A stretch of DNA of 63,345 nucleotides, counting the filler, from Collodictyon triciliatum (lineage: Eukaryota): assembly GCA_043381765.1 (NCBI GenBank). It is 11 parts of 11 records of this genome, joined end to end, with 100 filler letters (N's around TTAATTAATTAA, not from the genome) between each part and the next. Parts side by side here need not be neighbours in the genome. Positions count along the whole stretch, not along the records: positions 56,211 to 61,889 come from JBHJMP010004682.1; 10 more parts are not named here. The stretch is one strand, 5' to 3'. Shown one piece after another: positions 1 through 61,989 of this stretch; position 1 is the stretch's first letter, and every line of letters begins with the position of its first letter. The notes beneath the pieces were generated by a model. It had not been told where the DNA came from. It did no database searches and worked only from the letters and a program-made list of their open reading frames with translations. Made by a program: the position numbers and the translations under genes.

Positions 1-3000
1 GCGCCACTTCAATGGCAAGGCTCCGTCTCCCTTCATTCTTCTGATCAGAGTAACTGCAATTTGAGTGTCTGTTGAATTCATCAATTGATTCAATGTGTCG
101 GGCTGTGAGGTAATGTCATTAAGTGAGCGCATACCCTGGGCTCTGAGTGCGTCCTGGATTTGAGCCCAATCAGTTCCGGCAAGAACGCCACCGATTAAAT
201 CTGTATTACGCCTTAAACCACCATCGGGTGCCCTTGGTCCGAGGAAGCTGTTAATGTAATTGTTGAGTAAATCAAGCAGCTCAACGAGTTCGGGTGATGC
301 GGCAACGGGTGCGGGGCCTGTAGCTCTGCGTCGGTCACCTCTGCGGGGCAATGGCGCAAACTGTGTACTAGATGTAAAAATATTTCTCTGCATAACATTG
401 CCAGGAAAATTATCTGCGGGTGGTGCTGCTGCTGGGGCTGCTGGACGGTTTCTGTACACAATTCGCTCGACTTCACGGACGGGCCCAGGGACTTGGACTT
501 CACGGACAACTTCACGAGTTTCCCCAGGAATAATAATGGGCGGCCCGCGCACAGGGACCTCGACTCTTTCTGTGCGGACAACTTCACGGACGGGCCCAGG
601 AATAACAATGGGTCGATTGGCGCCGAGTGGGGCTTGGGGTCTAACAAGTAATTGCTGACGAGCTTGGGCTAATTCACCTTCAAGATCTCGCACACGGGCT
701 TCGGCTTGAGTTTTTAAATCTAAATCTGCAGCTCTAACTTGATTTAATGCTGTACGTTCTGCTGCAAATGCTGTACGTTCTGCTGCAAGCTCATTTTCAA
801 ATCCTGCGCGCTGTGATTCTATTTGTTCTTGAGCACGTTTAACATCTCGTTGTTTCTTTTCAAGTTCTCTGGAAATATCGGCATTCTCTCGATATAAATC
901 TTGAACTCTAGCTTTTTCAGTTTCAATAGTTCCCCTAAGTTCTGTAATTCTATTTTCGTTTACAAATACTTTATTTTGTTCAGTTCTAAGTTGCTCTTGA
1001 AGTCTACCAATAGTTTCATTACTTTTGCTAATTTGAGCTTGTATTGTTTGTTGGTCAACTGTAAGAGCATTTAAATCTGCTTGTAATTCATTAGCTCTAG
1101 CATCAGCTAAATCATATTTTTCTTGTAATTGTTCATTTTGTACATTCAGTTCGTTTAATCTTTCAGTTAAATTGTTTATATATTCATCAGCCTCTTTTAT
1201 CAAACGATTATATTCATTTTGGGCTTGTCTAATTTTTTCTCTCTCTTGGTCACTAATAAATATTGATTGAGTTAGTCTGTTATTTGTTATTTGTAACTGT
1301 TGTTCAAGGTTTGCTTTTTGGGTATTTGCAGTTTCAAGGTCTTGTTGTAATTGAAATGCTCGTTGATTAGCAGCTGTTAGTCTATCTCCTTGTTCACTGA
1401 CTTGAGCAGCAAGCGTTTTATTTGTAACCCCTAGAGCATCAAGTGCTGTTTTTTGTCTATCAACTATCTCTCTTAGTTTTTCGACTTCAAGTGAAATTCT
1501 GGGTGTAATTGGAAAATTAATAGGGGACGTTGCAGCACTTCGGGGTGAAGGATCTGGACTAGAATCAGGAGACCCGCCGGGTGCGCCGGGAGCAGCAGCT
1601 ACTTGTTGTTGTTGTTTGGCAGCTGCTAATTCATCTTGAAGTTTGGTAATTGTATCATTTAACATTCCGATTGTTTCATCGTTGGTTCGATTTTTCAAAT
1701 TTGCATCTCCTTCTAAATCAAAAATTTTTTTTGTCAAAATATCTACAAATTTTTGATGATCTGCTTCTAATTGTTGAACAAAAACTCTGTATTTTGGGTC
1801 TTGTTTAAGTTCTTTGATAAGGTCCTCATTCTCTTGAATTTGTTCAGTTAATTTTTCAATCTCTTTCACCTTTTCATCTAATCTTTGATTAAATATATGT
1901 TCCGTCTCTATTAATTTTTTGTCCGTTTCTTCAATCACTTTTTTATATGCATCTTCTGCAGTTTTTAGGGTATTTAAATTAGCTTCTATTTGTGCTTTTT
2001 CTCTTTCAAGAGTTGCAATTTTTTGTTGTAGTGTCCTTTCAGTCTCACTTATTAACAGTCCTCTTATTGGACTGCGTTGTTGTTGTTGAAGTTGTTGAAG
2101 TTGTTGTTGAAGCGTCTGTATACTACCTCTTGCTCTATTTAAATCTGCTTGTAATTCATTGTTTGCTCTTTGAATATTATCCATATCTCTAACTTTATCT
2201 CTTTCTAATGCTAATTCTCCTCTAAATTCCTCAATGTCTTCATATGCTTTTTTTATATCTCTGTGAAGATCTTCTTTTTGCTTTGCTAAAAATGCAACTC
2301 GTTTCTTCAAATTTTCAAATTCTGTAGGATCTATTTTTGGTTTGTCTAATTCTTTTTTTAATTCCTCTTTGGCACGGGTTGTTTCAGCTTCGTTTTTTTT
2401 TATATCTCTTTCTAATTGTGTTAATCTAGTAGATTTAGCACTTGTTTCTTCAAGAAGTTGTTTTTTTATTGCTAGTTCATTTTCCAAATCTGCTTTTAAA
2501 TTTGCTATTTCTCTGGATTTTCTTGTATTTTCATCGGAAAGTTTACTTACTTCTTGCATTTTTCCTGTAAAAATTTTATCCAACTCTTGATACTTTTCTA
2601 ACAATTTATTGTATTCCTCTTTTAATTTTTTTAATTCATCCTCACGGCCCTTTAGAGCTTGTTCTAATCCTGGTGCATTTGTTTTTTGTAATTCTTCTTT
2701 TAATCTTTTAATCTCTGCTTCATGAGCACTTATTTTTTTTTGTGCTTCTGTAAGATTATTTTGTGCTTGTAAAAGTTGAGATTGTGTTAGAGTGTCAAAA
2801 ACTGGTGTAGGTTGTCGAGTGCTTACTGACTGTGCTTGTTGTGAAGGCTGTTGTGCAGGTTGTTGAGTGCTAACTGATGCTTGTTCTGAACCTGTATCGT
2901 CTTGAGAAGTTAAACTTCTTCTAGCGGTACTAATAACTGCAGATGCAGTTGCGACTGCACCTCTACCAACTAAAGAAGCAGCACCCAGACTAACATTTAG

Positions 3001-4119
3001 TAAACCACTGCCAAGCGCACTAGCCCCTCGTGATAAAAAATTTGGCGACGCTGATTGACTTCTTTCTGTAAACTGAATCGATTCTGTTTTAAATTCAGCG
3101 GAAGACTCTCTAGCGGATTGAGATCTGCCCCGCACAGGAGTTAAAACATTTTCTTCTGTTTTTATCTGAGGGGTTGGGTCTGGGTTAAGTTCTGTTTTTA
3201 TTCGTTCGTCGCGGGGTGGACGTGCAGCAGGCATTTTAAACTGAGGACCTGGAGTTTTTCCGGCATTCTCCTTTCTTTTGCTTTCTAATTCAGCTGCAAG
3301 TCTAGCTGAAGCCTCTACTTCTGAAGAAGTTTGCTCGCTTGATTCTGTTGGTGTACGTGGTGTTAGTGTAGGTTGTTGATAGTTTGGTAGTAAATATGTT
3401 GCCATCTCTTCTCTCCATATATCATACAATTTATTAGCAGATAATTGTGTATTTCCTTTATATCCTATAAGATCTAATAAATGTTTAAAGTAATTTCTAT
3501 AATACACTGGGTCATTGGCTATGTCTGTATCAGAATGTATACTGGTTCGGGCAAAATCAATAACATCTTTTTTATTTTTAAATACCTGTCTGTAATTAAT
3601 TCGCTTAGTAATAAGTTGCAAATAGTCCATTTTTGTTTGTTTTGACTCTCCTGGAGAAAATGTAAAATGAAATTTATTTAACATAGCTTCGAGTTCAGCA
3701 GTTCTAAATTCATTTATATCAAAATATTTTTGTCGGAGTATGCTTGTTATTTGATCCAGAGTTAAATTTGAAACATCTCTAGGTGTTCCACTAGGTGATT
3801 GTTGTGGTTGAGCAAATACTCTAGGACTAGGACCAGCAGAAGCAGGCGCAGAACCAGGCGCAGAACTAGGAGCAGATCTAGGAGCACCCATCGGGTCCTC
3901 ATCATATTCAATATCAAATGGAGCATCTGCAACTATTCTGTTAGCAATAATTCTACCCGCAACGCCCTTGGATGGCCATTTTCCAAATCTTTGATAATAT
4001 AATTCTCTTAAATTGGCTACACGGTCTTTATCTGATAAATCTTTATATTCATCCAGTAATTCATCTCTCACTTGTTCTAATCCCAGGGTTTTAATATCTT
4101 CTTCTGATAGTTTGACCAT
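1..4119 (-). CDS. Very large coiled-coil/low-complexity hypothetical viral protein, at least 1373 aa, 3' end beyond the window start
   Basis: ATG at 4119 (MVKLSEEDIKTLGLEQVRDELLDEY...). The frame is open at every segment I spot-checked down to position 1 (...IAVTLIRRMKGDGALPLKWR). Long E/K/Q/L heptad stretches (e.g. QKANLEQQLQITNNRLTQSI) are separated by P/S/A-rich linkers. It is absent from the ORF track because it has no stop in the window. Confidence 0.8.
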   Translation of the reverse strand, partial: MVKLSEEDIKTLGLEQVRDELLDEYKDLSDKDRVANLRELYYQRFGKWPSKGVAGRIIANRIVADAPFDIEYDEDPMGAPRSAPSSAPGSAPASAGPSPRVFAQPQQSPSGTPRDVSNLTLDQITSILRQKYFDINEFRTAELEAMLNKFHFTFSPGESKQTKMDYLQLITKRINYRQVFKNKKDVIDFARTSIHSDTDIANDPVYYRNYFKHLLDLIGYKGNTQLSANKLYDIWREEMATYLLPNYQQPTLTPRTPTESSEQTSSEVEASARLAAELESKRKENAGKTPGPQFKMPAARPPRDERIKTELNPDPTPQIKTEENVLTPVRGRSQSARESSAEFKTESIQFTERSQSASPNFLSRGASALGSGLLNVSLGAASLVGRGAVATASAVISTARRSLTSQDDTGSEQASVSTQQPAQQPSQQAQSVSTRQPTPVFDTLTQSQLLQAQNNLTEAQKKISAHEAEIKRLKEELQKTNAPGLEQALKGREDELKKLKEEYNKLLEKYQELDKIFTGKMQEVSKLSDENTRKSREIANLKADLENELAIKKQLLEETSAKSTRLTQLERDIKKNEAETTRAKEELKKELDKPKIDPTEFENLKKRVAFLAKQKEDLHRDIKKAYEDIEEFRGELALERDKVRDMDNIQRANNELQADLNRARGSIQTLQQQLQQLQQQQRSPIRGLLISETERTLQQKIATLEREKAQIEANLNTLKTAEDAYKKVIEETDKKLIETEHIFNQRLDEKVKEIEKLTEQIQENEDLIKELKQDPKYRVFVQQLEADHQKFVDILTKKIFDLEGDANLKNRTNDETIGMLNDTITKLQDELAAAKQQQQVAAAPGAPGGSPDSSPDPSPRSAATSPINFPITPRISLEVEKLREIVDRQKTALDALGVTNKTLAAQVSEQGDRLTAANQRAFQLQQDLETANTQKANLEQQLQITNNRLTQSIFISDQEREKIRQAQNEYNRLIKEADEYINNLTERLNELNVQNEQLQEKYDLADARANELQADLNALTVDQQTIQAQISKSNETIGRLQEQLRTEQNKVFVNENRITELRGTIETEKARVQDLYRENADISRELEKKQRDVKRAQEQIESQRAGFENELAAERTAFAAERTALNQVRAADLDLKTQAEARVRDLEGELAQARQQLLVRPQAPLGANRPIVIPGPVREVVRTERVEVPVRGPPIIIPGETREVVREVQVPGPVREVERIVYRNRPAAPAAAPPADNFPGNVMQRNIFTSSTQFAPLPRRGDRRRATGPAPVAASPELVELLDLLNNYINSFLGPRAPDGGLRRNTDLIGGVLAGTDWAQIQDALRAQGMRSLNDITSQPDTLNQLMNSTDTQIAVTLIRRMKGDGALPLKWR

Positions 4120-4155
4120 AATACATTAGCCAATATAAATTTTCTGCGTAATAGT

Positions 4156-4515: not shown

Positions 4516-4536
4516 ATTTTTTTTCTATGTATTGTT

Positions 4537-6117
4537 ATGGCAGATTTTCCGACAGAAGCAAAGTACATGCGTATTAAAAATTACAATGACAAAGTTTTGG
4601 CAAGACACACAACCAGAATTAGTCCGTTCAATGGTTCCGTATTTGGACCAAGAGCAATTGACCGAATACTTTTTAATATACCTTCCGAAACTGGAATGGA
4701 AATTGATATGGACACTTTGATGTTTCACTTTGACGCTCAAATCGATTTGGGTGCAGATTTAGCTGCTAATACCACTGCTAGAGTTATGTTTTTGAATTCG
4801 ATTGAATCGGTCATTCAAACTCTCCGAATTAGGAAAGGCACATCTTTTTTAATTGAGGATATCCAACGGTACAATTACCTTGATTCAATGTTTATGAATT
4901 ATCTTAGTGATGATTATAATAAGTGTGTAGGAAATGCAATGATGGGGATTGGGCCTGTTACTGATAGATTTACACAAATACCTGCTGGATCACGATTAAA
5001 TACTAAAAAGAATTATTGCATTCCGTTTAGATTGTCGGGTATTTCAAATTACAGCGGGTTGATTAGCACCTCATTGATTGACCAGGTGAGTGCCTTCCAA
5101 TTTGAAATTGAGCTGGCCCCTGCAGCAGATGCAATTCAAGTGAATCGGGACGATATTGCTGCGGGCACCGTGGCTGATTTTGGCAAGGCACCTGCTACTT
5201 CAACTTATATTTTGAATAATTGTTATCTTAGTTACGACCTAGTAAGAATGTCACCGGATTATCATGCTCAGCTCCAATCAAGTATTAATCGCGGAATTCC
5301 TTTACAAATTCCATATAAGACCTGGCGCACAAGTATGTATTCAATTGACGGAACAAATACTACATTTACTCTAAATATTAATGACACGGTTAAATCTTTG
5401 AATAGTGTGTTTGTTGCATTCTTTCGGCAAGATGAGCAAGGTAAACTAACAATTAGTGGTAAGGACAGGAAACACAAGCCTGATAATTTAAAGACAGTTC
5501 AACTGCAGTTAGGTTCATTTTATTATCCGTTGCAACCCTGTGATTGTGAGCGACAAGCTACTCAAGCTTTTCTCGAGCTTCAGAAGGCGCTGGGTCTTGC
5601 ATTTGTCCGGTCAGAGTACAACGGGCCTTATGGATTTGAAGGTAAATATTATTCACAGACTTATCCAAATACCAGTGCGAATTTAGTCACACCGAATGGG
5701 TTTGCTGAAAACGCGCCCACTGCATTATTAAATCCTTTTGGTGTTGCTTATACTGCTCCAATAGGTCCAGCAGATGGAGTGGCGTATAAAACAAATTATG
5801 ACGGTGTTGGCCACCAAGCCGGTGGAAATATAGCGCACAATGCTGCTAATATTGCTAGAGCGCCTAGATTTGCTACAGAAGCAGGAGGTAGTCCGTGCAC
5901 AGAATTCCTAATCGGGTTTAATATGCGGAAAGTTCTCGATGCGACGGAAGGGGAAATAGTCGGTACAGACATCCAGTCTTCCGGATCTGGTTTGATGACA
6001 TTAAGATTAGAATTTAATCAGGGTGGTCCGGGCGTTGCATATAATATCGTCGTTGCTTCGCTGTATGATGCCGTACTGGAAATTCAATCCAACCAACAGG
6101 CATTCCGTGTAGAATAA
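4537..6117 (+). CDS. Major capsid protein, double jelly-roll, Polinton-like virus type (526 aa)
   Basis: Motif order matches what I recognise from PLV capsids: SPFNGSVFGP..RILFNIP, IDMDTLMFHFD, SVIQTLRI..G...IEDIQRYN, QFEIELA, SLNSVFVAF, QLQLGSFYYP.QP, AFLELQKALG, FLIGFNM, YDAVLEI. Beta-rich and intronless. Confidence 0.8.
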   Translation: MADFPTEAKYMRIKNYNDKVLARHTTRISPFNGSVFGPRAIDRILFNIPSETGMEIDMDTLMFHFDAQIDLGADLAANTTARVMFLNSIESVIQTLRIRKGTSFLIEDIQRYNYLDSMFMNYLSDDYNKCVGNAMMGIGPVTDRFTQIPAGSRLNTKKNYCIPFRLSGISNYSGLISTSLIDQVSAFQFEIELAPAADAIQVNRDDIAAGTVADFGKAPATSTYILNNCYLSYDLVRMSPDYHAQLQSSINRGIPLQIPYKTWRTSMYSIDGTNTTFTLNINDTVKSLNSVFVAFFRQDEQGKLTISGKDRKHKPDNLKTVQLQLGSFYYPLQPCDCERQATQAFLELQKALGLAFVRSEYNGPYGFEGKYYSQTYPNTSANLVTPNGFAENAPTALLNPFGVAYTAPIGPADGVAYKTNYDGVGHQAGGNIAHNAANIARAPRFATEAGGSPCTEFLIGFNMRKVLDATEGEIVGTDIQSSGSGLMTLRLEFNQGGPGVAYNIVVASLYDAVLEIQSNQQAFRVE

Positions 6118-20045: not shown

Positions 20046-21271
20046 ATAGAATTTTATTATATGTGGAAAATATAATATAGTTAATTTTTTCTTTGTAGTA
20101 ACAGTTTTAAGCACAAATAATTCGCAAAGTAGCATATTCAAATATATTCATGCATTATAATACATCTTATGTAACCTCTTTAACATGCCTGTTCAATGGA
20201 TTGAGCTAGTTATCATAAGCTTAGTTGGTAGCTAACCACGCCGTTCGAAATTCCAGAAATGGATAACAATAATTTTATCCTAATGTAGCAGCAGGACTCG
20301 CTCTGTTGATTTCAACCGCACACCAAATGAGCCCATGAAACAATCGCAGAAAAAGCCCAAATATATGCATTAATAGAAAATATCAAGTTTTCTTAAATAT
20401 ATCACCAATTACGGGTTTAAATAGTTTGATAAAAGGCACGTATCCATATTAATTCAATTTCCATTTTAAGAATACTATATAGACAGGAAAACAAGCGGAG
20501 AGAAAAAGCAAAGCGCGAGTTGACAAAACACAAATTTCCAAACAATTCGACATCCAATGAAAAAGATTCATTTCCATTAGGGAGAAACCTTGTTGAATAA
20601 CACAAGACTCGCGAGAATTGTTTTTTCTAAATGAAATATTCAAAGGAAAAAACCACATAAAAAAGCCAAAGCGAACGCAAACTAAGCGCATTAGCAAATA
20701 TCGAGGCGAACAATCCGAAAACAACGTGATTTCAAAGCCAATCGAACCCGCGGAGATATCCCAGCCATCGGTTCACTCAGCCGTCGATTCTATCGGCCAT
20801 TTCGGTCCTGCGCCTGCACCAAACGAAACGGGAGATTTCAAACATGAGCATCGACCATCAAANNNNNNNNNNNNNNNNNNNNNNNNNNNNNNNNNNNNNN
20901 NNNNNNNNNNNNNNNNNNNNNNNNNNNNNNNNNNNNNNNNNNNNNNNNNNNNNNNNNNNNNNNNNNNNNNNNNNNNNNNNNNNNNNNNNNNNNNNNNNNN
21001 NNNNNNNNNNNNNNNNNNNNNNNNNNNNNNNNNNNNNNNNNNNNNNNNNNNNNNNNNNNNNNNNNNNNNNNNNNNNNNNNNNNNNNNNNNNNNNNNNNNN
21101 NNNNNNNNNNNNNNNNNNNNNNNNNNNNNNNNNNNNNNNNNNNNNNNNNNNNNNNNNNNNNNNNNNNNNNNNNNNNNNNNNNNNNNNNNNNNNNNNNNNN
21201 NNNNNNNNNNNNNNNNNNNNNNNNNNNNNNNNNNNNNNNNNNNNNNNNNNNNNNNNNNAGCTTATGTCATG

Positions 21272-21487
21272 AAAACACAAAAACACAAAAACACAAAAAC
21301 ATAAAAACACAAAAACATAAAAACATAAAAACATAAAAACACAAAAACACAAAAACATAAAAACACAAAAACATAAAAACACAAAAACATAAAAACATAA
21401 AAACATAAAAACATAAAAACATAAAAACATAAAAACATAAAAACATAAAAACATAAAAACACAAAAAACACAAAAAACACAAAAACA
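21272..21487. repeat. (AAAAACAY)n microsatellite next to an internal N gap (20863-21258)
   Basis: Direct inspection. Confidence 0.95.
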
Positions 21488-21544
21488 CGAGTCGCACCCA
21501 AGTGTTTACACGCACTTGCAACCCCAGACAACAGAAGCCGGAGA

Positions 21545-23295
21545 ATGAGCGACGACTCCGCCAAGCAAACGGCGACAGACTTTCTGGGGACCTTTGCCAC
21601 ATACCAGAAGCGCGGACAAAACGCAGGACCAAACACGCGGCCGGCAGCGCGCCTTTCTCTCTCCGAACCAAGTCCATCGCCCGGGCCAAACGCAACGCCT
21701 CCACTGCACTCGCAATCCATTTCGCCCTCAACTTCACCTTCACCTTCGCCTTCGCCTTCGCCTTTGCCTTTGCCTTTGGCCCCAAACAGCACCGAAACGT
21801 CCCCAACACTAATGGGACACGCCGCCGCCTTGACCACGGATCCGGCCCTGCTTACGTCTCTGCCGCTGTTTATCCCGGCCAACGCAACGCTGACCAACAC
21901 TCACTCACTCAAACCACACTTCCGGCGCGTCCACGAAGCCGGGCCGGGCTTTGGTTCGGACTATGACTCGGGCATCGGCGTTGGGATTGGGACTGGGATT
22001 CCGGCTGGTTTGGCTGCCGCGATGGACATCGACCCCGCACACGGAGTCGACAGCGGCAATGCAGACCGGATTGAAGCGGCTGCCGAGTGCAAAGCGGCTG
22101 CGATTGTGCCGATCCTCAAAGTGCCAAAGAAGTGGCCGTCCTTTGCAGAGACCGGCCATCGCGCATCCCATCCGGAAATCCGCATCACAAACGAAGCCAG
22201 TGACTCGGGGTCCGGCGCAGAGACAGACGCAGATGCAGCAGCAAGACAGGCCGATGCCCTTGCCATCAGTCTGCGCAAGGCGAGCGGGCGCTTTCTGGGG
22301 CTGGCCTTGCCCGAACCCATGGGCCATGCAGCAGACTCCGACTCGCACTTGGATCCGAATCAGAGCCCAAGCCCTAGTCCGAGCCCCAGCGTCCGGTCGC
22401 ACCAGCGGGAGATGCAGAGCAAGAATCTTGCTGCAGACGTGACGGATCCACATGAGCTCGGCTCACTTCACCCCACAAACACGGCACCTACAAAAGTGAA
22501 CGCCATTCCAAACCTGAATCAGTTTGATCCATTCCTGAACGCAGCAACCTTTATGGACGAGATTCATTCCGTGGTCTACCCGCTCACAATATTGAATCCA
22601 AATCAGATGTTTCATCAGTACTGGGACATGTTTATGATGATCATCATCCTGTACAACGCAGTCACCATCCCCATGCAGGTTGCTTTCCCAGTGCTCATCA
22701 CCCCGGGCGTCAGGGCCACAGAAATCTTCTTCAACATTTGCTTCATGATTGACATTGTTATCAACTTCCGCACAGCTTACGTCGACAGAGGTGTTGTGGT
22801 GGTGGACGGCCGGCTGATTGCCAGACAATATCTCACCACGTGGTTCTTTGTAGACTTCTTCTCGGCCATCCCGTACGACTGGATCATCGATCAGTTTACG
22901 GAATCAAACAATCTCTCTCGGCTGCCCCGTTTGATTCGCATGGTGCGTTTAATCAGACTCTTTCGGCTGGTGCGCGTCTTTAGACTCGTCAGAGTTTTTC
23001 AAAAGTGGTTTTCGCACATTCGCCTCAATCAACTTGCTCTTCGTGTTGTCAAGCTCGTTTTCATCCTGTTTTGCATATCCCACTACGCCGCTTGCGGTTG
23101 GGTCTTTGTTAGCACCATAGAAGACCCTGATTATACCTGGTGGTCGTTCTACGATAGAAAGACTTACCAGGATAACACAGTCAGCTCTCGATATCTGAGT
23201 GCTCTTCATTGGGCTGTCACCACCATAACGACGGTTGGATACGGGGACATTGTGCCGAAGGTATTACTAAATATAATTGATATAATCATACAGTA

Positions 23296-23337
<42 letters not shown>

Positions 23338-39412: not shown

Positions 39413-40840
<1,428 letters not shown>

Positions 40841-41128: not shown

Positions 41129-43418
41129 TCACTCTGTGGCGCCACTGATCAGCGCCATCAGGAAGCGGGCCTGATACGGATCGAAGCGGAAGGGGCTCTC
41201 CAGCAAGTCTCTGTACTCGATGCCGAGAAACTCGGCGCCTGTGACTCCGACCTCCCTGAAGCGATCCAGAATGGCCCGGCCCGCATTGTTGGCGTGGAGA
41301 TACGCGACAAGGCCGCCCGAGTCCAGGCCTTTGGGCCCCTGCTTGGCAAGTCCTTGAGGCTCCATCACGCGGGCCAGCTCCATGTCGACTTGGGTGGCGG
41401 TGATGCGCTTTTCATAAGCGGGTTCCCAGCACGCGCGAATCAGAGTCGCCAGCCTGGGCGGACAGGAGGCCGGGATGAGAAGGGAGTTGCCGGTCATGAC
41501 TCTGTGGCCGATTACGCGCGATTCAAGGCCTTCGTAGGGATACTCGCCGGCAAGCATCGACCACATGACGACTCCGAACGAGTACACGTCAGAGGGGAGA
41601 CCAGCGCTCTTGCCGTAGTCAAAGACTTCGGGTGCTGCCCAGTGTTTGGAGCAGATCAAACTGGAGTCTGAGTTGACCGAGACGCCGCTCTTGGAGACCC
41701 CAAAGTCTGACAGCTTGGCCACGCCGTTGACGAGCAGGATGTTTTCGGTCTTGAGGTCGCGGTGCTGGATGGGCGGGGTGGTGGTGTGGAGATAGGCAAG
41801 GCCCTGGATGATGTGCTTTCCAAACCTCATGGTCAGCTCGTTGCCCAGGGCCTTGACCCTTCGAATCAGCGAGCGCAGGTCGCCCCCGTCTGCAAACTCC
41901 ATCAGCATGAGCAGGTCGTTGCCCCGGTAGCCAAAGTCCAGGAGGGCCAGGATGTTTGGGTGGCGTAGGGCGAGCATCATGTAGCCTTCTCTCTCCGCCT
42001 CGAGCGACCCCAATTGCCGGGCCACGAGGGCATCCGAGATTTTCTTGACTGCGTAGTCTACCGACTTGAGAACCACCCGATATGCGGTGCCGAACCCGCC
42101 TTTGCCGAGAAAGTTTTCGGGCTTTTCAAAGTCGGTGGTGAGGATGTCGCTGTACATCCCAGGGGTGAATCTCTTTGGCCCTGTTGCTTCGGTGATTATT
42201 ATTATTATTATTATGTTCGTTCCAGAAAAAGTGCGCGTTAGTAGATAATATAGTAGTTACATGGGAAAGATATCAGGCTGGTGTCTATTTCTAAGGGAAA
42301 AGATTGGGAAGAATAAATCACGCAAATGGAAATATAAGTTATTTTTTTCTTTCTAACCAGAGATTGGCTGCTGCATGGGATAATTGGCAGTGGGGGATAT
42401 TAAGTTAGATTTTATCGTTCGAATACATAAAAACAAACAAACAAACAAACAAACAAACAAACAAACAAACAAACAAACAAACAAACAAACAAACAAACAA
42501 ACAAACAAACAAACAAACAAACAAACAAACAGTCTGAGTTAGTTGTTGGGATACGTTATCAATGGATGAATCAATGGATCATATAAAGCGAACTTTCTCT
42601 TTTTTCTTTTTACAGATACTTTTTTTTTAAGTAGTATTACTGGCTCGTACAGCTGCAGAGTCCTCAAAGCTTGTGCGATTGTTAACTTCATATCTCCCTT
42701 TTTCGGGTCCGTGTGATTGTTCCAACAAGGCAAGTTCGTAATTCCGCTGGGGGCTCTCTTAATGGTCACATTCCCGTTCAGTTCCATGTAGATGTATTCA
42801 AGATTGACCAGTGCTGTTACATGCTGCGGAAGTTCTTGTATCTGCGTTTATAGGGAGAGGGCTTATCAATACACGACCTTTTATCTTGCATCTATTTTCG
42901 ACCACAAGCGCAATCTTCAATGTGCTTCGCAAACATATTCATATATATGCAGCGATGTAATCGCATACCAAATTACCGCGAATACTCAGATGCTCGAGAG
43001 CTGTCAGGCAGGATATCTCCAGCTGCAGTGTTGCCAGTCGGTTCTCTCGAATGCTCAAGTCTTTGACCTTTGTCAAGCACGATATTCCCCTTGGAAGTGA
43101 CGTCAGGCTATTTCCTCGAGCTTCTATCCTTACAAGACTTGTCAACAGGGATATCTCTGAAGGCAGCGATGTCAGCTTATTTTCAGAGACGACTAGCTCC
43201 ATCAGACCCATCAACCGCATTATTTCTGAAGGCAGAGACGAAAGCTGGTTGTTGGAAAGGGACAATCGGACTAAACGGGTCAAGGCAAAAACACCGAGCG
43301 GCACAGACGTCAGGTTCTTGAAGGAGAGTTTCAGCGTCGTGCGGTTTCGGAGTGTGGCCTCATCCGGATCGCCGATCAGCTTTTGCAGGTCTTTGAGACG
43401 TGCAGGGTTGTCTGACAT
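41129..43418 (-). CDS. Leucine-rich-repeat + TKL-type protein kinase + SAM-like tail, spliced
   Basis: LRR exon with LxLxxNxLxSLPxEI repeats (42960-43418), a linker exon near 42650-42850, and a kinase exon (GKGGFG, YAVKK, HRDLKTEN, DFG, WAAPE, SDVYSFG). A helical C-terminal ~65 aa resembles a SAM domain. Confidence 0.8.
42430..42531. repeat. Intronic (AAAC)n
   Basis: Direct inspection. Confidence 0.95.
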
Positions 43419-43725
43419 TGTCACGAGGGGTTGGACCGGAGTCTGGAAACTGCGCGACTGGCGGGGCTGCGGTGGGTGAGGAAAACAGAGGCCGTGAGCA
43501 CTCTGGTGCGCTCCTGGAGCTTTATTTTTCTTTCTTTCCTTTCCTTTCCTTTTTTTTTTTTTTTTTTTTTTTTTGTTCGGGTGGTTTTTTTTTTTTTAAT
43601 GAAATAAAAAAAAAAAAAAACAAAANNNNNNNNNNNNNNNNNNNNNNNNNNNNNNNNNNNNNNNNNNNNTTAATTAATTAANNNNNNNNNNNNNNNNNNN
43701 NNNNNNNNNNNNNNNNNNNNNNNNN

Positions 43726-56110: not shown

Positions 56111-56210
56111 NNNNNNNNNNNNNNNNNNNNNNNNNNNNNNNNNNNNNNNNNNNNTTAATTAATTAANNNNNNNNNNNNNNNNNNNNNNNNNNNNNNNNNN
56201 NNNNNNNNNN

Positions 56211-56700
56211 TTTTTATTCTTTCTTTTTATTCTTTCTTTTTATTCTTTCTTTTTATTCTTTCTTTTTATTCTTTCTTTTTATTCTTTCTTTTTATTCTTT
56301 CTTTTTATTCTTTAGTCTTTTATTCTTTTTATTCTTTTTATTCTTTTTATTCTTTTTATTCTTTTTATTCTTTTTTATTCTGTTTTATTCTGTTTTATTC
56401 TGTTTTATTCTGTTTTATTCTGTTTTATTCTTTTTATTCTTTTTATTCTTTTTATTCTTTTATTCTTTTATTCTTTTATTCTTTTATTCTTTTATTCTTT
56501 TATTCTTTTATTGTGGCAATATTTCATGTTTTTCCTCTGCATCGACTTTTTATTATTATTATTATGATTATTATGATGACTATGATTATTATGATTATGT
56601 TTATTATGTTTATTATGTTTATTATGTTTATTATGTTTATTATGTTTATTATGTTTATTATGTTTATTATGTTTATTATGTTTATTATGATTATTATTTT
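56211..56700. repeat. (TTTTATTC)n-type and (TTTATTATG)n simple repeats upstream of the TRIM-like gene
   Basis: Direct inspection. Confidence 0.9.
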
Positions 56701-56728
56701 GATAAATAGCCACCGTAGCAGCCAAACA

Positions 56729-59700
56729 ATGGAGAGTGAATGCAACTGCCCAGGATGTGGAAAAACTTTCGAAGATCCGCGCATTCTCCCTTGCAAACAC
56801 GTTTATTGCGTGACCTGCGTCAGAGATATGAGCAAAACACCCATCGACTTTCTAGACCAAAGCAAAGGAACGAAGTCGTGTTGCTTTCTGTGCGAAACTG
56901 GATTTACACTCCGCAATGGTGATCCGAAGTCCCTCCCTCAGTCAGAAAAGCACTTGGATATTGTGGAGACTTACAAGAAGGCGCCAACTTTCGTGACTTT
57001 CAAGTGCGATGAGCATCCTGAGAAAGAAGCAGTGAAGAGGTGTCTGAGTGGCTGTGACCATATTTGCGAAGATTGTGTTTCCGCTCATAAAACTTTAAGG
57101 CTACTGAAACCCCATAAACTTGTGTGAGTTTTATTTTATATTTATATATTCTACGCTTTTTCATAACTTTCCAGATACTTTTATTTCTTTGTTTCGAATG
57201 TCAAGATATAATATATTATTGCATCTTTTGTTTAATTTTTACTTCTGTTTACATAAATAAATAAACTCAGTGATGTGGACAAATCGAGGCCAGTTGTTTT
57301 TGATACTGCGTGCCCAGAGCATATGCAACCCTTCACAGAATTCTGCCCAAAAGAAAGCTCGGAGAATCCTTTCATGTGTGCAATGTGCATCGGCCAGCAT
57401 TTAAAACAAGTTGGAAAGTGCGAACATGGGGAATTCAGCACGGGTGCTCAGAAAATTTGTAAAGATTTAGGCGATAATAAAAAGAAGATGGACGAGCATA
57501 ACAAATCCACTGCAACCTTAGTGAACAAAATCGAAGAAAAGCAGACTGAGGTACGCGAAATTCAATCATGGACATCTACACATTTCTTGATTTCATGACT
57601 TCAGCATTTCATGATGGAACTCTTTGCATGTAAGGTTGAAAATTACATCTCGAACTTGAAGAGCAAGGCCAAAGAGGAGTTTGAAAAAATAAGAAAGGTA
57701 GTAGATGAGGAAGAGCTGCGATTTATGGAAAAGGTATGTGTTCATTTCAGCTTACTTTTATGCCAACGTAAATAATGCGATTATAAAATGACCTATCGAA
57801 TATTTCAACAGATTGACGCCTTCCACAAAAAAATCATATACCCATTTTCTACCATGGGAGGGCATCTGAAATTCTTGAAGGAGCATTTGCAACATTCAAA
57901 TAAATTTGTGGATGAATCAATTAAAGTATTTGTTGAAGGAAAATCCCCAGTTAAACTTCCTCTTGCTAAAAGAACCTCGATTTCGGTGTTGTCGAAAAAA
58001 ATCCCTACGATACCCGAAAGCTTTGCTGAATTTGCTGAAACCGTGCCATCATTCACTTTTACTGAGACAAAACCTGGAGATATACGACCTCCTGCTGCGG
58101 TGTTCACTGAGTTAATTTCATCCTCCTCTGAAGCCCCATTGAGACAGTATTCATCATGTGAGCCTGAGTTACCTTCATCAGAATCAAAATAGACCCTCAT
58201 CTAAACAAGCTCTCCAATTCAAAGCTCATTCATCGCGCCAAGCTCGACTTCATGGGCCCAAAGCTCAACCCACACAAGCAGCACGTTCACAGGTGAACTC
58301 ATTATGTAAACATGTCAGTATATAATTGCCCATAATTCCTTGAAACACAACTCCTGAATTTCAACGATGGGTTGGTGGCATAAACACTGAAGGAGGTAAC
58401 ATTTTAATTTATAAATACGTTAATGGCTGAATATTCAAAAATCAATGTTCTCTAGCTCTTTTATCTTGATATACACAATTTATGTTTTAACCAGATCCTT
58501 TTGACAACCATCAATTTTTTTCTGTTTTAAAAACCTTTCCTCTAATAACTATTTTGCATTTTTTTTAAGGGTGTAAGTTTCATTTTATCATGATGTTATA
58601 TTTACATATTGTTGAAGTCATATTACATCGATGGTGTTGATGTTTCTGTGGAATTATATCGGTGTGAGCTAAAATGGAATATATGCCTGAATATCGTGAC
58701 AAACTTGGTGAAATCATAGGTGGTAAGTTTATTATTCCTGGAAAAAGAATAATTCTATTTAATTGTTAGATAATATGATCTCTATTTTCAATTAGAGATG
58801 CATAACTATGTTTATAAGATATAAGTGTTAACCGATTCATATGAATACACTATGATGAAATATTCATATAATTTCTGTGTCTGATACGTGTATAATCATA
58901 GCAAGTAATTTTTATTCTGTTTTAAGATACGATAATTTGCTAAAAATAAACATATTCGGTTGTAAATACGAGACGCATAATTATGTATACAAGATATAAG
59001 TGCTAAATAATTCATGTGAATACATCATGATGCAATATTCATATGATTTCTGTGCCTGGTATGGTATAATCATAGAAAGTAAGTCTTTATTCTCACGAAA
59101 GATAAGATAATATGATATGATATGCATAATTATGTATACAAGAAATAAGTGTTAACCGGCACATGAGAATACACCGTGATGCAATATTCATATGGTTGCT
59201 GCGTCTGGTACATGTATAATCATAGAGAGTAAGCCTTTATTCTCACGAAAGATAAGATGATATGAGATGATAAAAATAAACATACATGTTCGTTTCTAAT
59301 TATGTGATGCATAATTATGTATATAAGAAATAAGTGTTCATTGACACATGTGAATGCACCATGATACAATATTCATATGATTGATGTGTCTGGATTGCAT
59401 AATAATAGGTTGTAAGTTGTTATTAGTCTTGAGAAATAAGATAATACGAGATAATAAATAGAACCATATTCGTTTCTAAATGTGTGATGCATAATTATGT
59501 ATATAAGAAATAAGTGTTAAGCGGCATATGTGAATACATCATAATGCAGTTTCATATGATTGATGTCTCTGACATTTATAATCATAGCTTGTAAGTTGTT
59601 ATTAATCTTAAGGGATAAGACAATACGATATGATAAAAATAAACATATTCCTTTGTAAATATGAGATGCATAAGTATGTATGCAAGAAATAAGTGTTAAC

Positions 59701-61752
59701 TGGCACATGTGAATACATTTTGATACAATATTCATATGATTGATGTGTCTGGATTGCATAATAATAGGTTGTAAGTTGTTATTAGTCTTGAGAGATAAGA
59801 TAATACGAGATAATAAATAGAACCATATTCGTTTCTAAATGTGTGACGCATAATTATGTATATAAGAAATAAGTGTTAAGAGGCATATGTGAATACATCA
59901 TAATGCAGTTTTCATATGATTTATGTGACCGACATGTATAATCATAGCTTGTGAGTTTTTATCCCTCTTGAAAGATAAGATTATATGAGATGATAAAAAT
60001 AAACATATTTGGTTGTAAACATGAGATGCTTCATTATGTATACAAGAAATAAGTGTTAACTGATTCATGTGAATATGCCATGATGTAATATTTAATAGAT
60101 TCTGTGTCTGATACGTTTGTAATCATAGCCTGTAAGTTTTATTAGTCTTGTTAGTTATATAAAATGAGATGGTGAAAATAAACATAATCCTTTGTAAATA
60201 TGAGAAGCATAATTATGTTTACAAGAAACAAGCGTTAACCAACACATGTGAATACACCATGATGTCATATTTAATAATTTTTGTCTGATTTTTGTTGATA
60301 ACCATAGGCAGTACGTTTTTTCACTCTTGAAAGACAAGATATTATGAAATGCTAAAAATAAACATATTCGGTTGTAAACATGAAATGCATAATTATGCAT
60401 ACAAGAAATAAGTGCTAAATGAAGCATGTGAATACGTCATGATGCAATATGCATGTGATTTCTGTGTCTCATTTTTCTGTAATCATAGTTTGTAAGTTTT
60501 TATTTTCTTGAAAGATAAGATAATGCAAGATGATAAAAAGGACCATAAATTCCTTTGTAAATATGGGATGCATAATTATTTATACAAGAAACATGTGATA
60601 ACTGACACATGTGAATACACTGTGATGCAGTACTCATATGATTGAGTCTGATATGTGTGTAATCATAGGACGTATGTTTTTATTTCTATTTAATCGTTAA
60701 ATTACGTGAGATGATAAAAAGGACCATACATTCCTTTGTAAATATGGGATGCATAATTATGTATACAAAATATAAGTGTTAACCAACACATGTGAATACA
60801 CTGTGATGCAGTACTCATATGATTGTTTCTGATATGTATACAATCATAGCAAGTAAATTTAATTCTCTTGGAAGACAAGATAATAAGATATAAAAATAAA
60901 CTTATTAATTTGTAAATATGTTATGTATGTTTATGTATACAAGAAATAAGTGTTGACTGACACATGTGAATACAATATGATGCAATATTCATATGATTGC
61001 TGTGTTTGGTACGTATATGATCATAGATTGTAAGTTTTTATTCACTTGAAGGTTAAGATAATATTATATGCTTAAAATATACATATTCAGTTGTAAACAT
61101 GAGATGCATAATTATGTATACAAGAAATAAGTGATAAATGATTCATGTGAATACACCATGATGCAATAATCATATGATTGAGTCTGATATGTGTATAATC
61201 ATAGAAAGTTTGCTTTCATTTGTCTTGAAAGAAATATATAATATAATATTAGATGATAAGATAAATATATTCGTTTGTAAATATTTGATGCACAACTATG
61301 TACATAAATATAAGTGTTAACTGAGACATGTGAATACACCATGATGCAATACTCACATAATTTCTGTGTCTGTTTGTGTATAATCATAGTTTGTAAGTTG
61401 TTATTCTCTAGAAGATAAGATAATATGAGATGATAAATATACCCATACATTCGTTTATAACTATGAGATGCATAATTATGTATACAAGAAACAAGTATTA
61501 ACAGACACATGTGAATGAACCATGATGCAATACTCATATGATTTCTGCATTTGGTACGTGTATAATCATAGCTTGTAAGTTTTTATTCTCTAGAAGATAA
61601 AATAATATGAAGTGATAAAAAGTTAACATATTCGTTTGCTAATATGAGATGTATAATTATGTATATAAAATATAAGTATTCACAGACACATTTGAATATA
61701 CCATTATGTAATATTCATATGATTGAGTCTGATATGTGTATAATCAAAGAGA
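56729..61752 (+). CDS. TRIM-like RING + two B-box + coiled-coil protein, predicted to continue through a chain of 3-nt micro-exons; 3' end missing
   Basis: RING (CPGC..PRILPCKHVYCVTC..CFLC), B-box-like CDEH..C..C.HICEDC..AH..H and CPEH..FC..C..C..H, then coiled-coil exons. Approximate exons 56729-57122, 57271-57550, 57635-57733, 57812-58157 and 58225-58292. The RBCC part is secure. The extension past 58157 is inferred; unspliced, the frame stops at 58192. Confidence 0.75.
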
Positions 61753-61779
61753 GTAAGTTGTTATTAGTCTTGAAAGCAA
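58723..61779 (+). repeat. Tandem array of 17 complete diverged ~180-bp units (one shortened to about 150 bp) plus a truncated one; each unit has the form of a GT...AG intron plus a 3-nt exon
   Basis: Consensus gtaagtttttattctcttgaaagataagataatatgagatgataaaaataaacatattcgtttgtaaatatgagatgcataattatgtatacaagaaataagtgttaactgacacatgtgaatacaccatgatgcaatattcatatgatttctgtgtctgatacgtgtataatcatag-NNN. Confidence 0.95.
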
Positions 61780-61889
61780 TATGTTATGTTATGTTATGTT
61801 ATGTTATGTTATGTTATGTTATGTTATGTTATGTTATGTTATGTTATGTTATGTTATGTTATGTTATGTTATGTTATGTTATGTTATGT
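61780..61889. repeat. (ATGTT)n microsatellite that truncates the 180-bp array at the contig end
   Basis: Direct inspection. Confidence 0.95.
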
Positions 61890-61989
61890 NNNNNNNNNNN
61901 NNNNNNNNNNNNNNNNNNNNNNNNNNNNNNNNNTTAATTAATTAANNNNNNNNNNNNNNNNNNNNNNNNNNNNNNNNNNNNNNNNNNNN

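Follow-up and report, generated by a model that had tools for sequence, protein, structure and literature searches.

Dscam1 carries tandemly duplicated exon-plus-intron units, from which many isoforms of a recognition protein are made; its duplicated exons are longer than 100 nt, mutually exclusive, and selected by docking-selector pairing of the RNA. An exon of only three bases is difficult for the spliceosome to recognise; such exons escape most annotation and read-mapping software, and to our knowledge they are known only as rare single cases. The subject of this analysis is a series of such exons in Collodictyon triciliatum, found in a 63,345-nucleotide stretch of assembly GCA_043381765.1 (the whole stretch is called the window below). 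On contig JBHJMP010004682.1, which occupies positions 56211-61889 of the window, a gene coding for a TRIM-like protein is followed by 20 sites of the form AG/NNN/GT (slashes mark exon borders). These sites are probably one-codon exons, which together make up the coding tail of the gene.

Micro-exon genes (MEGs) of trematodes (Schistosoma) are described as made of symmetric exons of 3-81 bp and introns of up to 5 kb (10.1101/2023.06.21.545858). The likeness to the locus analyzed here, drawn by description, resides in very short exons whose length is a multiple of three, and whose skipping keeps the frame and yields protein variants. MEG exons, however, vary in length, are separated by long introns and form no tandem repeat, whereas all exons of the array would measure 3 nt and reside in 180-bp units. 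Moreover, MEG products are secreted parasite proteins, while the product here would be the tail of a RING/B-box protein devoid of a hydrophobic leader. Most of the coding sequence of a MEG is found in micro-exons; here 396 codons lie in five ordinary exons, against 20 in 3-nt exons.

In recursive splicing, as outlined for Drosophila Ubx and other genes, an acceptor abuts a strong donor, and the 5' splice site is recreated stepwise (10.1101/006163). Array sites similarly feature an acceptor just ahead of a strong GTAAGT donor. Ratchet points, however, correspond to exons of zero nucleotides and leave nothing behind, whereas three bases separate AG and GT at 20/20 sites of the array, and in our proposal would be kept and translated. 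Single 3-nt micro-exons are mentioned for Drosophila homothorax, human RPS24 and MAP4K5 (PMC7392893, PMC12686416, PMC8632122), and a paper on Amphidinium mentions exons down to 3 nt in length (PMC12584245). The isolated cases show that the spliceosome can include a 3-nt exon, but they occur one per gene, or as one of three unlike micro-exons, whereas about twenty uniform ones lie in series here. Single 3-nt exons, plant micro-exon clusters, MEGs and recursive splicing were retrieved by a full-text literature search which did not extend to supplements, and no tandem array of uniform 3-nt exons was met there. Coding by micro-exons is already known; what would be new here is the array of uniform one-codon exons.

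Gene model and transcripts

The gene lies on the plus strand and includes five exons (56729-58292). Every intron has GT..AG borders, and the frame stays open through 396 codons.

56729-57123, plus strand: exon 1 (395 nt), beginning with the ATG; RING finger (Pfam) and putative B-box 1 (ligands of both conserved in an alignment)
57271-57550, plus strand: exon 2, 280 nt; Cys/His-rich stretch at the place of the relatives' B-box 2, then start of the helical region (frame continuity)
57635-57733, plus strand: exon 3, 99 nt; predicted coiled-coil segment (RNA joint 57733/57812, hydrophobic periodicity of 3.5 residues)
57812-58157, plus strand: exon 4 (346 nt); last part of the predicted helical region, then a Ser/Thr/Pro-rich linker, ending one base into a codon
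58158-58224, plus strand: intron 4, 67 nt, GT..AG; its retention leads to a TAG stop at 58190-58192
58225-58292, plus strand: exon 5, 68 nt; 23 codons including the carried-over base, ending in phase 0

The last base of exon 4 is the T at 58157, the donor GTGAGC starts at 58158, and the acceptor AG of intron 4 is found at 58223-58224. Exon 5, being 68 nt long and preceded by one carried base, ends exactly on a codon boundary, before GTGAAC. The initial annotation had placed the ATG, the donor at 58158, the acceptor at 58224, the exit at 58292 and a triplet flanked as AAG/GAG/GTAAC at 58393-58395, and all these coordinates hold.

Parts of the 56700-58800 region are covered by four public runs, all consisting of assembled contigs aligned at a likeness of at least 90%. 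Runs X1 and X2 belong to one study, X3 is a freshwater metatranscriptome from a separate study, and X4 an aquatic metatranscriptome. The shares of the runs are small (0.05-0.20), their habitat is freshwater/aquatic by record only, and the 58404-58545 interval has no RNA cover. The joint 57123/57271 (GT..AG) is present in an X2 contig, and the joint 57733/57812 (GT..AG) in X1 and X2 contigs, with a short side of 99 letters in X2. Exon 4 is joined to 58225 in contigs of both X1 and X2. Introns 1, 3 and 4 are removed in the mRNA of a homologue of the gene. No joint is listed for intron 2 (57551-57634); RNA depth is almost nil in introns 1 and 2.

A spliced contig of 334 letters, found in X1 (depth 16.6) and X2 (depth 7.7), leads into the array. 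It consists of 183 letters corresponding to 57973-58155, 2 changed letters, 69 letters corresponding to 58225-58293, and 80 loose letters; exon 5 is fully covered. Directly after exon 5 the contig reads GAG, GGT and GTG, the first three predicted 3-nt exons in genomic order; these nine letters agree with an order set out in advance, for which the chance is ~4e-6. The array thus joins the reading frame in phase 0, as the initial annotation had claimed, and the junctions at 58158/58224 and 58293, for which a check in RNA had been suggested, are both seen in these assembled contigs of the homologue. The spliced sequence spans 27 in-frame codons past exon 5 (24 past GTG), and no stop is found among the ten codons read. 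As 12 differences occur in its first 183 letters (~93% identity to the reference), the contig stems from a homologue, which may be a relative, an allele or a paralogue. The X3 contig leaves exon 4 at the same point, and enters a diverged exon-5-like sequence. Loose ends at 58126, 58155 and 58256 indicate that several diverged versions of the end of exon 4 and of exon 5 occur in the runs, which suggests a small gene family, or related species sharing this gene end. With several variants present, spliced and unspliced contigs cannot be linked.

If intron 4 is kept, the frame is open to the TAG at 58190-58192, and the gene could end there, the remainder being a non-coding or untranscribed satellite with a chance splice motif, or coding for a repeat protein on the minus strand. 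Spliced contigs omit 58158-58224 and go on into the micro-exons, which contradicts this explanation and makes it scarcely credible. Neither a real stop at 58192 nor an entry in phase 1, both of which had been considered as fatal to the gene model, applies to the transcripts of the homologue. The initial annotation was inexact in one detail, that the joined triplets would hit TGA in phase 1: of the two other frames, one contains TGA, TAA and TAG, and the other contains no stop.

The array of one-codon sites

All 20 sites lie on the plus strand after exon 5, three as single sites, the following 17 in a tandem repeat.

58393-58395, plus strand: micro-exon 1, GAG (Glu), AAG/GAG/GTAAC; outside the recognisable repeat unit, first triplet in the homologue's transcript
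58570-58572, plus strand: micro-exon 2, GGT (Gly), AAG/GGT/GTAAGT after a T run; second triplet in the transcript
58720-58722, plus strand: micro-exon 3, GTG (Val), ATCATAG/GTG/GTAAG; third triplet in the transcript
58723-61779, plus strand: array of 17 units of ~180 bp; intron-like stretches of 147-182 nt (GTAAGT...ATCATAG), each ending at a 3-nt candidate exon
58902, plus strand: candidate exon CAA, regular unit
59076, plus strand: candidate exon AAA, regular unit
59226, plus strand: candidate exon AGA, regular unit
59409, plus strand: candidate exon GTT, regular unit
59588, plus strand: candidate exon CTT, regular unit
59768, plus strand: candidate exon GTT, regular unit
59948, plus strand: candidate exon CTT, regular unit
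60129, plus strand: candidate exon CCT, regular unit
60308, plus strand: candidate exon GCA, regular unit
60489, plus strand: candidate exon TTT, regular unit
60669, plus strand: candidate exon GAC, regular unit
60850, plus strand: candidate exon CAA, regular unit
61027, plus strand: candidate exon ATT, regular unit
61205, plus strand: candidate exon AAA, regular unit with a weak donor, GTTTGC
61390, plus strand: candidate exon TTT, regular unit
61572, plus strand: candidate exon CTT, regular unit
61750, plus strand: candidate exon AGA, regular unit

TRF assigns to the array a period of 180 and 14.8 copies, and the 17 following sites are in register. The sites at 58393 and 58570 reside in sequence no longer resembling the repeat. 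Micro-exon 3 (58720) has both acceptor and donor of the repeat, and the intron behind it is the first regular unit. Candidate introns measure 100-182 nt, a size comparable to that of the confirmed introns of the gene (67-147 nt). A 15-letter motif of the unit, searched with at most 2 mismatches, has 22 matches in the window, 18 on the plus strand of the array contig and 4 elsewhere; shuffles gave 5.4 +/- 2.3 matches and reached 22 in 0/100 trials. The recurrence of the motif exceeds chance.

The AG and the GT are invariant in 17/17 regular units, while the triplet in between differs among units at pairwise frequencies of 0.76, 0.71 and 0.58 at its three positions; the mean of all 179 columns is 0.25. 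No other of the 177 three-column windows varies as much (0.68 for the triplet, 0.57 for the next window). In unit pairs with a flank divergence of 0.18-0.27, the triplet differs at 0.6-0.7 per site, about three times as much as the flanks. The youngest pairs (59409/59768 and 59588/59948) are ~10% apart and have identical triplets, which indicates that a block of two units (GTT, CTT), found duplicated within 59229-59950, was copied recently; TRF gives periods of 334 and 359 as well. Such a peak of variability would mean either that the triplet is under diversifying selection, or that it evolves freely next to an intronic unit subject to constraint or homogenisation. In both cases the splice signals are retained.

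The contig probably holds the 5' part of one TRIM-like gene, made up in order by RING, B-box, coiled coil, linker, exon 5 and one-codon exons, the 17 regular units being used as exons like the first three. Each micro-exon would have an invariant acceptor (..ATCATAG) in front and a near-consensus GTAAGT donor behind, and from micro-exon 3 on, a micro-exon and its intron of ~177 nt would correspond to one 180-bp repeat unit. The array would grow by unit duplication, and change by point mutation of the triplets; if all units are used, the tail encoded on this contig has 20 residues, one per exon. Three nucleotides leave no room for both splice-site complexes at a time, and such an exon cannot be defined across its own length; splicing would therefore proceed stepwise from 5' to 3'. 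A 3-nt exon would be first joined to the long upstream exon, the next GTAAGT would then lie behind an exon of normal size, and the step would be repeated, as at a ratchet point of recursive splicing, but with three bases left at each step. A uniformly strong donor and an invariant ATCATAG would fit such a stepwise model, the exon side of the donor varying freely.

As every exon would be one codon, any subset of them could be skipped without frameshift, and skipping could give combinatorial tails at the place where TRIM proteins carry the part which binds targets. That each of the 20 or more single-codon exons is independently included or skipped, so that one gene makes a large library of short peptide tails at the recognition end of a TRIM-like E3 ligase, possibly directed against viruses, in a unicellular freshwater eukaryote, is a speculative extension which we consider unlikely; unit duplication and triplet mutation would in that case quickly renew the repertoire. 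The tandemly duplicated exon-plus-intron units recall those of Dscam1, but conserved pairing was not found in the 17 introns, their consensus fold (RNAalifold, -2.74 kcal/mol) being limited to 12 pairs in two small hairpins, with no meaningful structure. A Dscam-like selector mechanism is therefore unsupported.

If the one-codon exons are used, serial splicing of such exons is workable, a tandem repeat can extend a protein by single residues, and a frame-safe substrate for combinatorial isoforms resides at the end which in TRIM-like ligases usually binds the target. The array would be a natural test bed for the definition of very short exons, and other arrays of this kind have probably been annotated as satellites.

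Several observations weigh against the use of the whole array as coding tail. The RNA support is at the level of assembled contigs instead of reads, and these contigs belong to a homologue, not to the locus itself; the RNA label of X1 and X2 is guessed, and spliced joints alone show that transcripts are present in them. The seven triplets read after GTG in the homologue differ from the next seven of the reference, the sole likeness being a CCT, GC(T/A) pair as found in units 60129/60308 (hand-estimated chance ~0.09), and no regular unit is consequently seen as an exon. Unspliced contigs covering 58273-58396 and 58613-58730 (depths 27.9 and 34.7) match or surpass the spliced contig in depth, and feature 41 other letters in place of 58397-58612, an interval which includes the GGT site. 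Stop codons are absent from the 20 triplets, an outcome that composition would produce with P = 0.14 and that is weak evidence if taken alone. The unit at 61205 has a poor donor (GTTTGC), and the conservation of the intronic part of the unit is not explained by any conserved RNA structure. Searches with exons 1, 2 and 4 found no second locus, no scan with the array unit having been made; within the window, tblastn of the spliced product detected no paralogue.

The differing triplets are what might be expected if only the three upstream micro-exons are real, and the 180-bp array is a satellite within a single intron of more than 3 kb, which leads to a conventional exon beyond the contig. In the homologue the chain after GTG departs from the triplet order of the reference and is richer in C, and no regular unit is spliced in any RNA piece. 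This is the serious rival, though we hold it to be improbable. It leaves unexplained why AG and GT are invariant in all 17 units and enclose the window that varies most. The acceptor and donor of the unit are present from micro-exon 3 on, and the intron behind it is a regular unit; the unspliced contig of the homologue passes GTG/GTAAGT into unit-like sequence. At 3 kb, the intron would moreover exceed every confirmed intron of the gene 20-fold, and nothing like the further chain of the homologue was seen by eye in 58723-61889.

The depth of the unspliced contigs is also compatible with an array of termination points, at which splicing stalls, the intron is retained, an early stop is met and polyadenylation follows, giving tails that differ by graded length and not by combinatorial content. 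Read-through from every triplet meets an in-frame stop 3-36 codons into each of the 20 intron stretches, and AATAAA is found 41-48 nt behind the donor in 9/20 of them, all nine in regular units. Unspliced array contigs equal or exceed the depth of the spliced one, in contrast to introns 1 and 2, where depth is close to zero. No poly(A) end is seen in the RNA contigs, though contigs cannot show ends; AATAAA is frequent by chance at ~27% G+C, and the spliced contig runs on for 27 codons. Termination as the role of the array appears distinctly improbable, but it may coexist with the use of the sites as one-codon exons: intronic stops, AATAAA in 9/20 stretches and deep unspliced contigs leave room for truncated isoforms ending within the array.

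A repeat protein on the minus strand, the other form of the explanation in which the gene ends at the TAG, is favored by the unit length of ~180, near a multiple of three, and by the number of stops per 1019 codons, 44-53 on the minus strand vs 89-113 on the plus strand. It was rejected. No frame stays open beyond 127 codons, and the shortage of stops is the same in all three; most of the unit spacings (150-183) are not divisible by three, and three minus-strand ORFs (open reading frames) have no Pfam hit. In 58723-61779, composition would predict ~76 stops per 1019 codons on the minus strand, and the depletion to 44-53 probably reflects the composition of the repeat.

About ten contigs, each of roughly 6.1 kb, make up the window, with runs of N around TTAATTAATTAA between them (e.g., 56111-56210 and 61890-61989), and adjacent pieces are without physical linkage. 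The contig of the array (56211-61889) has microsatellites at both ends.

56211-56697, no strand: the contig starts with microsatellites, (TTTTTATTC)n and (TTTATTATG)n; the last letter lies 31 nt upstream of the ATG
61780-61889, no strand: (TATGT)n run; the contig breaks here, inside the last array unit and before the N linker

As the initial annotation had stated, the final exons are cut off by the contig end, since the contig stops within the array at (TATGT)n. Microsatellites are the break points of several contigs in the window. A Rfam scan of the contig gave no match up to E 0.1.

The TRIM-like N-terminus

The order RING, putative B-box, predicted helical or coiled-coil region, from which the initial annotation had derived an RBCC gene, is supported at the sequence level. 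The RING encoded by exon 1 is recognized by Pfam as zf-RING_UBOX (E 6.6e-6, 26.5 bits, cut-off 25.2) and passes zf-C3HC4 as well (22.4 bits vs a cut-off of 21), whereas zf-B_box, at residues 92-127, stays under the cut-off (21.1 bits vs 24.1). Exon 1 was aligned with 19 distant relatives (alignment A2). Eight RING ligands (C7, C10, C22, H24, C27, C30, C52, C55) and five B-box ligands (C93, C105, C113, H120, H129) are invariant in this alignment, and the B-boxes of the relatives pass Pfam.

A HMMER search against 1.84 billion representatives retrieved 173 proteins at E <= 1e-3 (best 8.7e-11). In the same set, identity over the RING-plus-B-box span is at most 38%, and the relatives of the N-terminus appear to be only distant. 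Ten of the hits were scanned for domains. B-boxes follow the RING in 9/10, one hit (P0001) has tandem RINGs, and C-terminal NHL, filamin, Kelch or Deltex domains are found in 4/10. When compared with PDB, the A2 profile, which is dominated by the relatives, matches TRIM28 (E 1e-40), and also TRIM3, TRIM2 and TRIM25; the single sequence (phmmer) has weak matches to TRIM69, TRIM5 and TRIM34 (E 1e-3 to 5e-3). A language-model protein atlas places the protein beside TRIM2/3-like clusters.

A hydrophobic periodicity of 3.5 residues extends over residues ~183-310 and exceeds the 95% level of shuffles in almost all 28-residue windows starting at 183-282, in a crude test. Residues 55-85 of exon 2 align just after B-box 2 of a relative (P0006; E 4e-4). 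The Cys/His stretch of this exon has no Pfam hit, a second B-box being undetected by Pfam. Exon 4 has no Pfam hit either, and the Ser/Thr/Pro-rich linker in its second half is without relatives in protein searches. Searches of a word-indexed protein collection with exons 1 and 4, restricted to near lengths, returned no match; scans of metagenome_contigs gave 542 pattern matches for exon 4 and 222 for exon 2, none of which was confirmed by tblastn. No hydrophobic leader is found at the N-terminus, where the RING cysteines come at once, as judged by eye.

The protein thus described resembles TRIM/RBCC ligases (TRIM28, TRIM2/3, TRIM25, TRIM5, TRIM21) in having a RING, a putative B-box and a predicted helical region in the same order, and differs from them because its known part continues with a linker and a micro-exon tail, instead of a SPRY, NHL or filamin domain. 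The TRIM-like label holds for the predicted architecture, the C-terminus lying beyond the contig end.

Other genes in the window

The first contig contains a 533-codon ORF (4516-6117, plus strand) with no Pfam or PDB sequence hit, which is adjoined on the opposite strand by a coiled-coil-rich ORF of 1375 codons (1-4125, minus strand). In the protein atlas the 533-codon ORF falls next to virus clusters (score 0.98), most of them Preplasmiviricota; capsid families (Capsid_N, Sputnik MCP) occur in some members of these clusters. Judged from this placement, the ORF resembles a major capsid gene of the virophage- or polinton-like kind.

An intronless alpha-tubulin gene (39413-40840, plus strand), adjoining a protein kinase (41129-42256, minus strand) and a leucine-rich repeat protein (42939-43595, minus strand), resides in a GC-rich island (0.61 G+C vs a window average of ~0.38). 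The tubulin has a motif of the non-opisthokont type, which, along with the capsid-like gene of the first contig, hints that the organism is a protist, as the initial annotation had supposed. A long open frame with an ion-transport domain of the voltage-gated channel type is found at 21449-23296 (plus strand), after a low-complexity region and a N gap (20863-21258).

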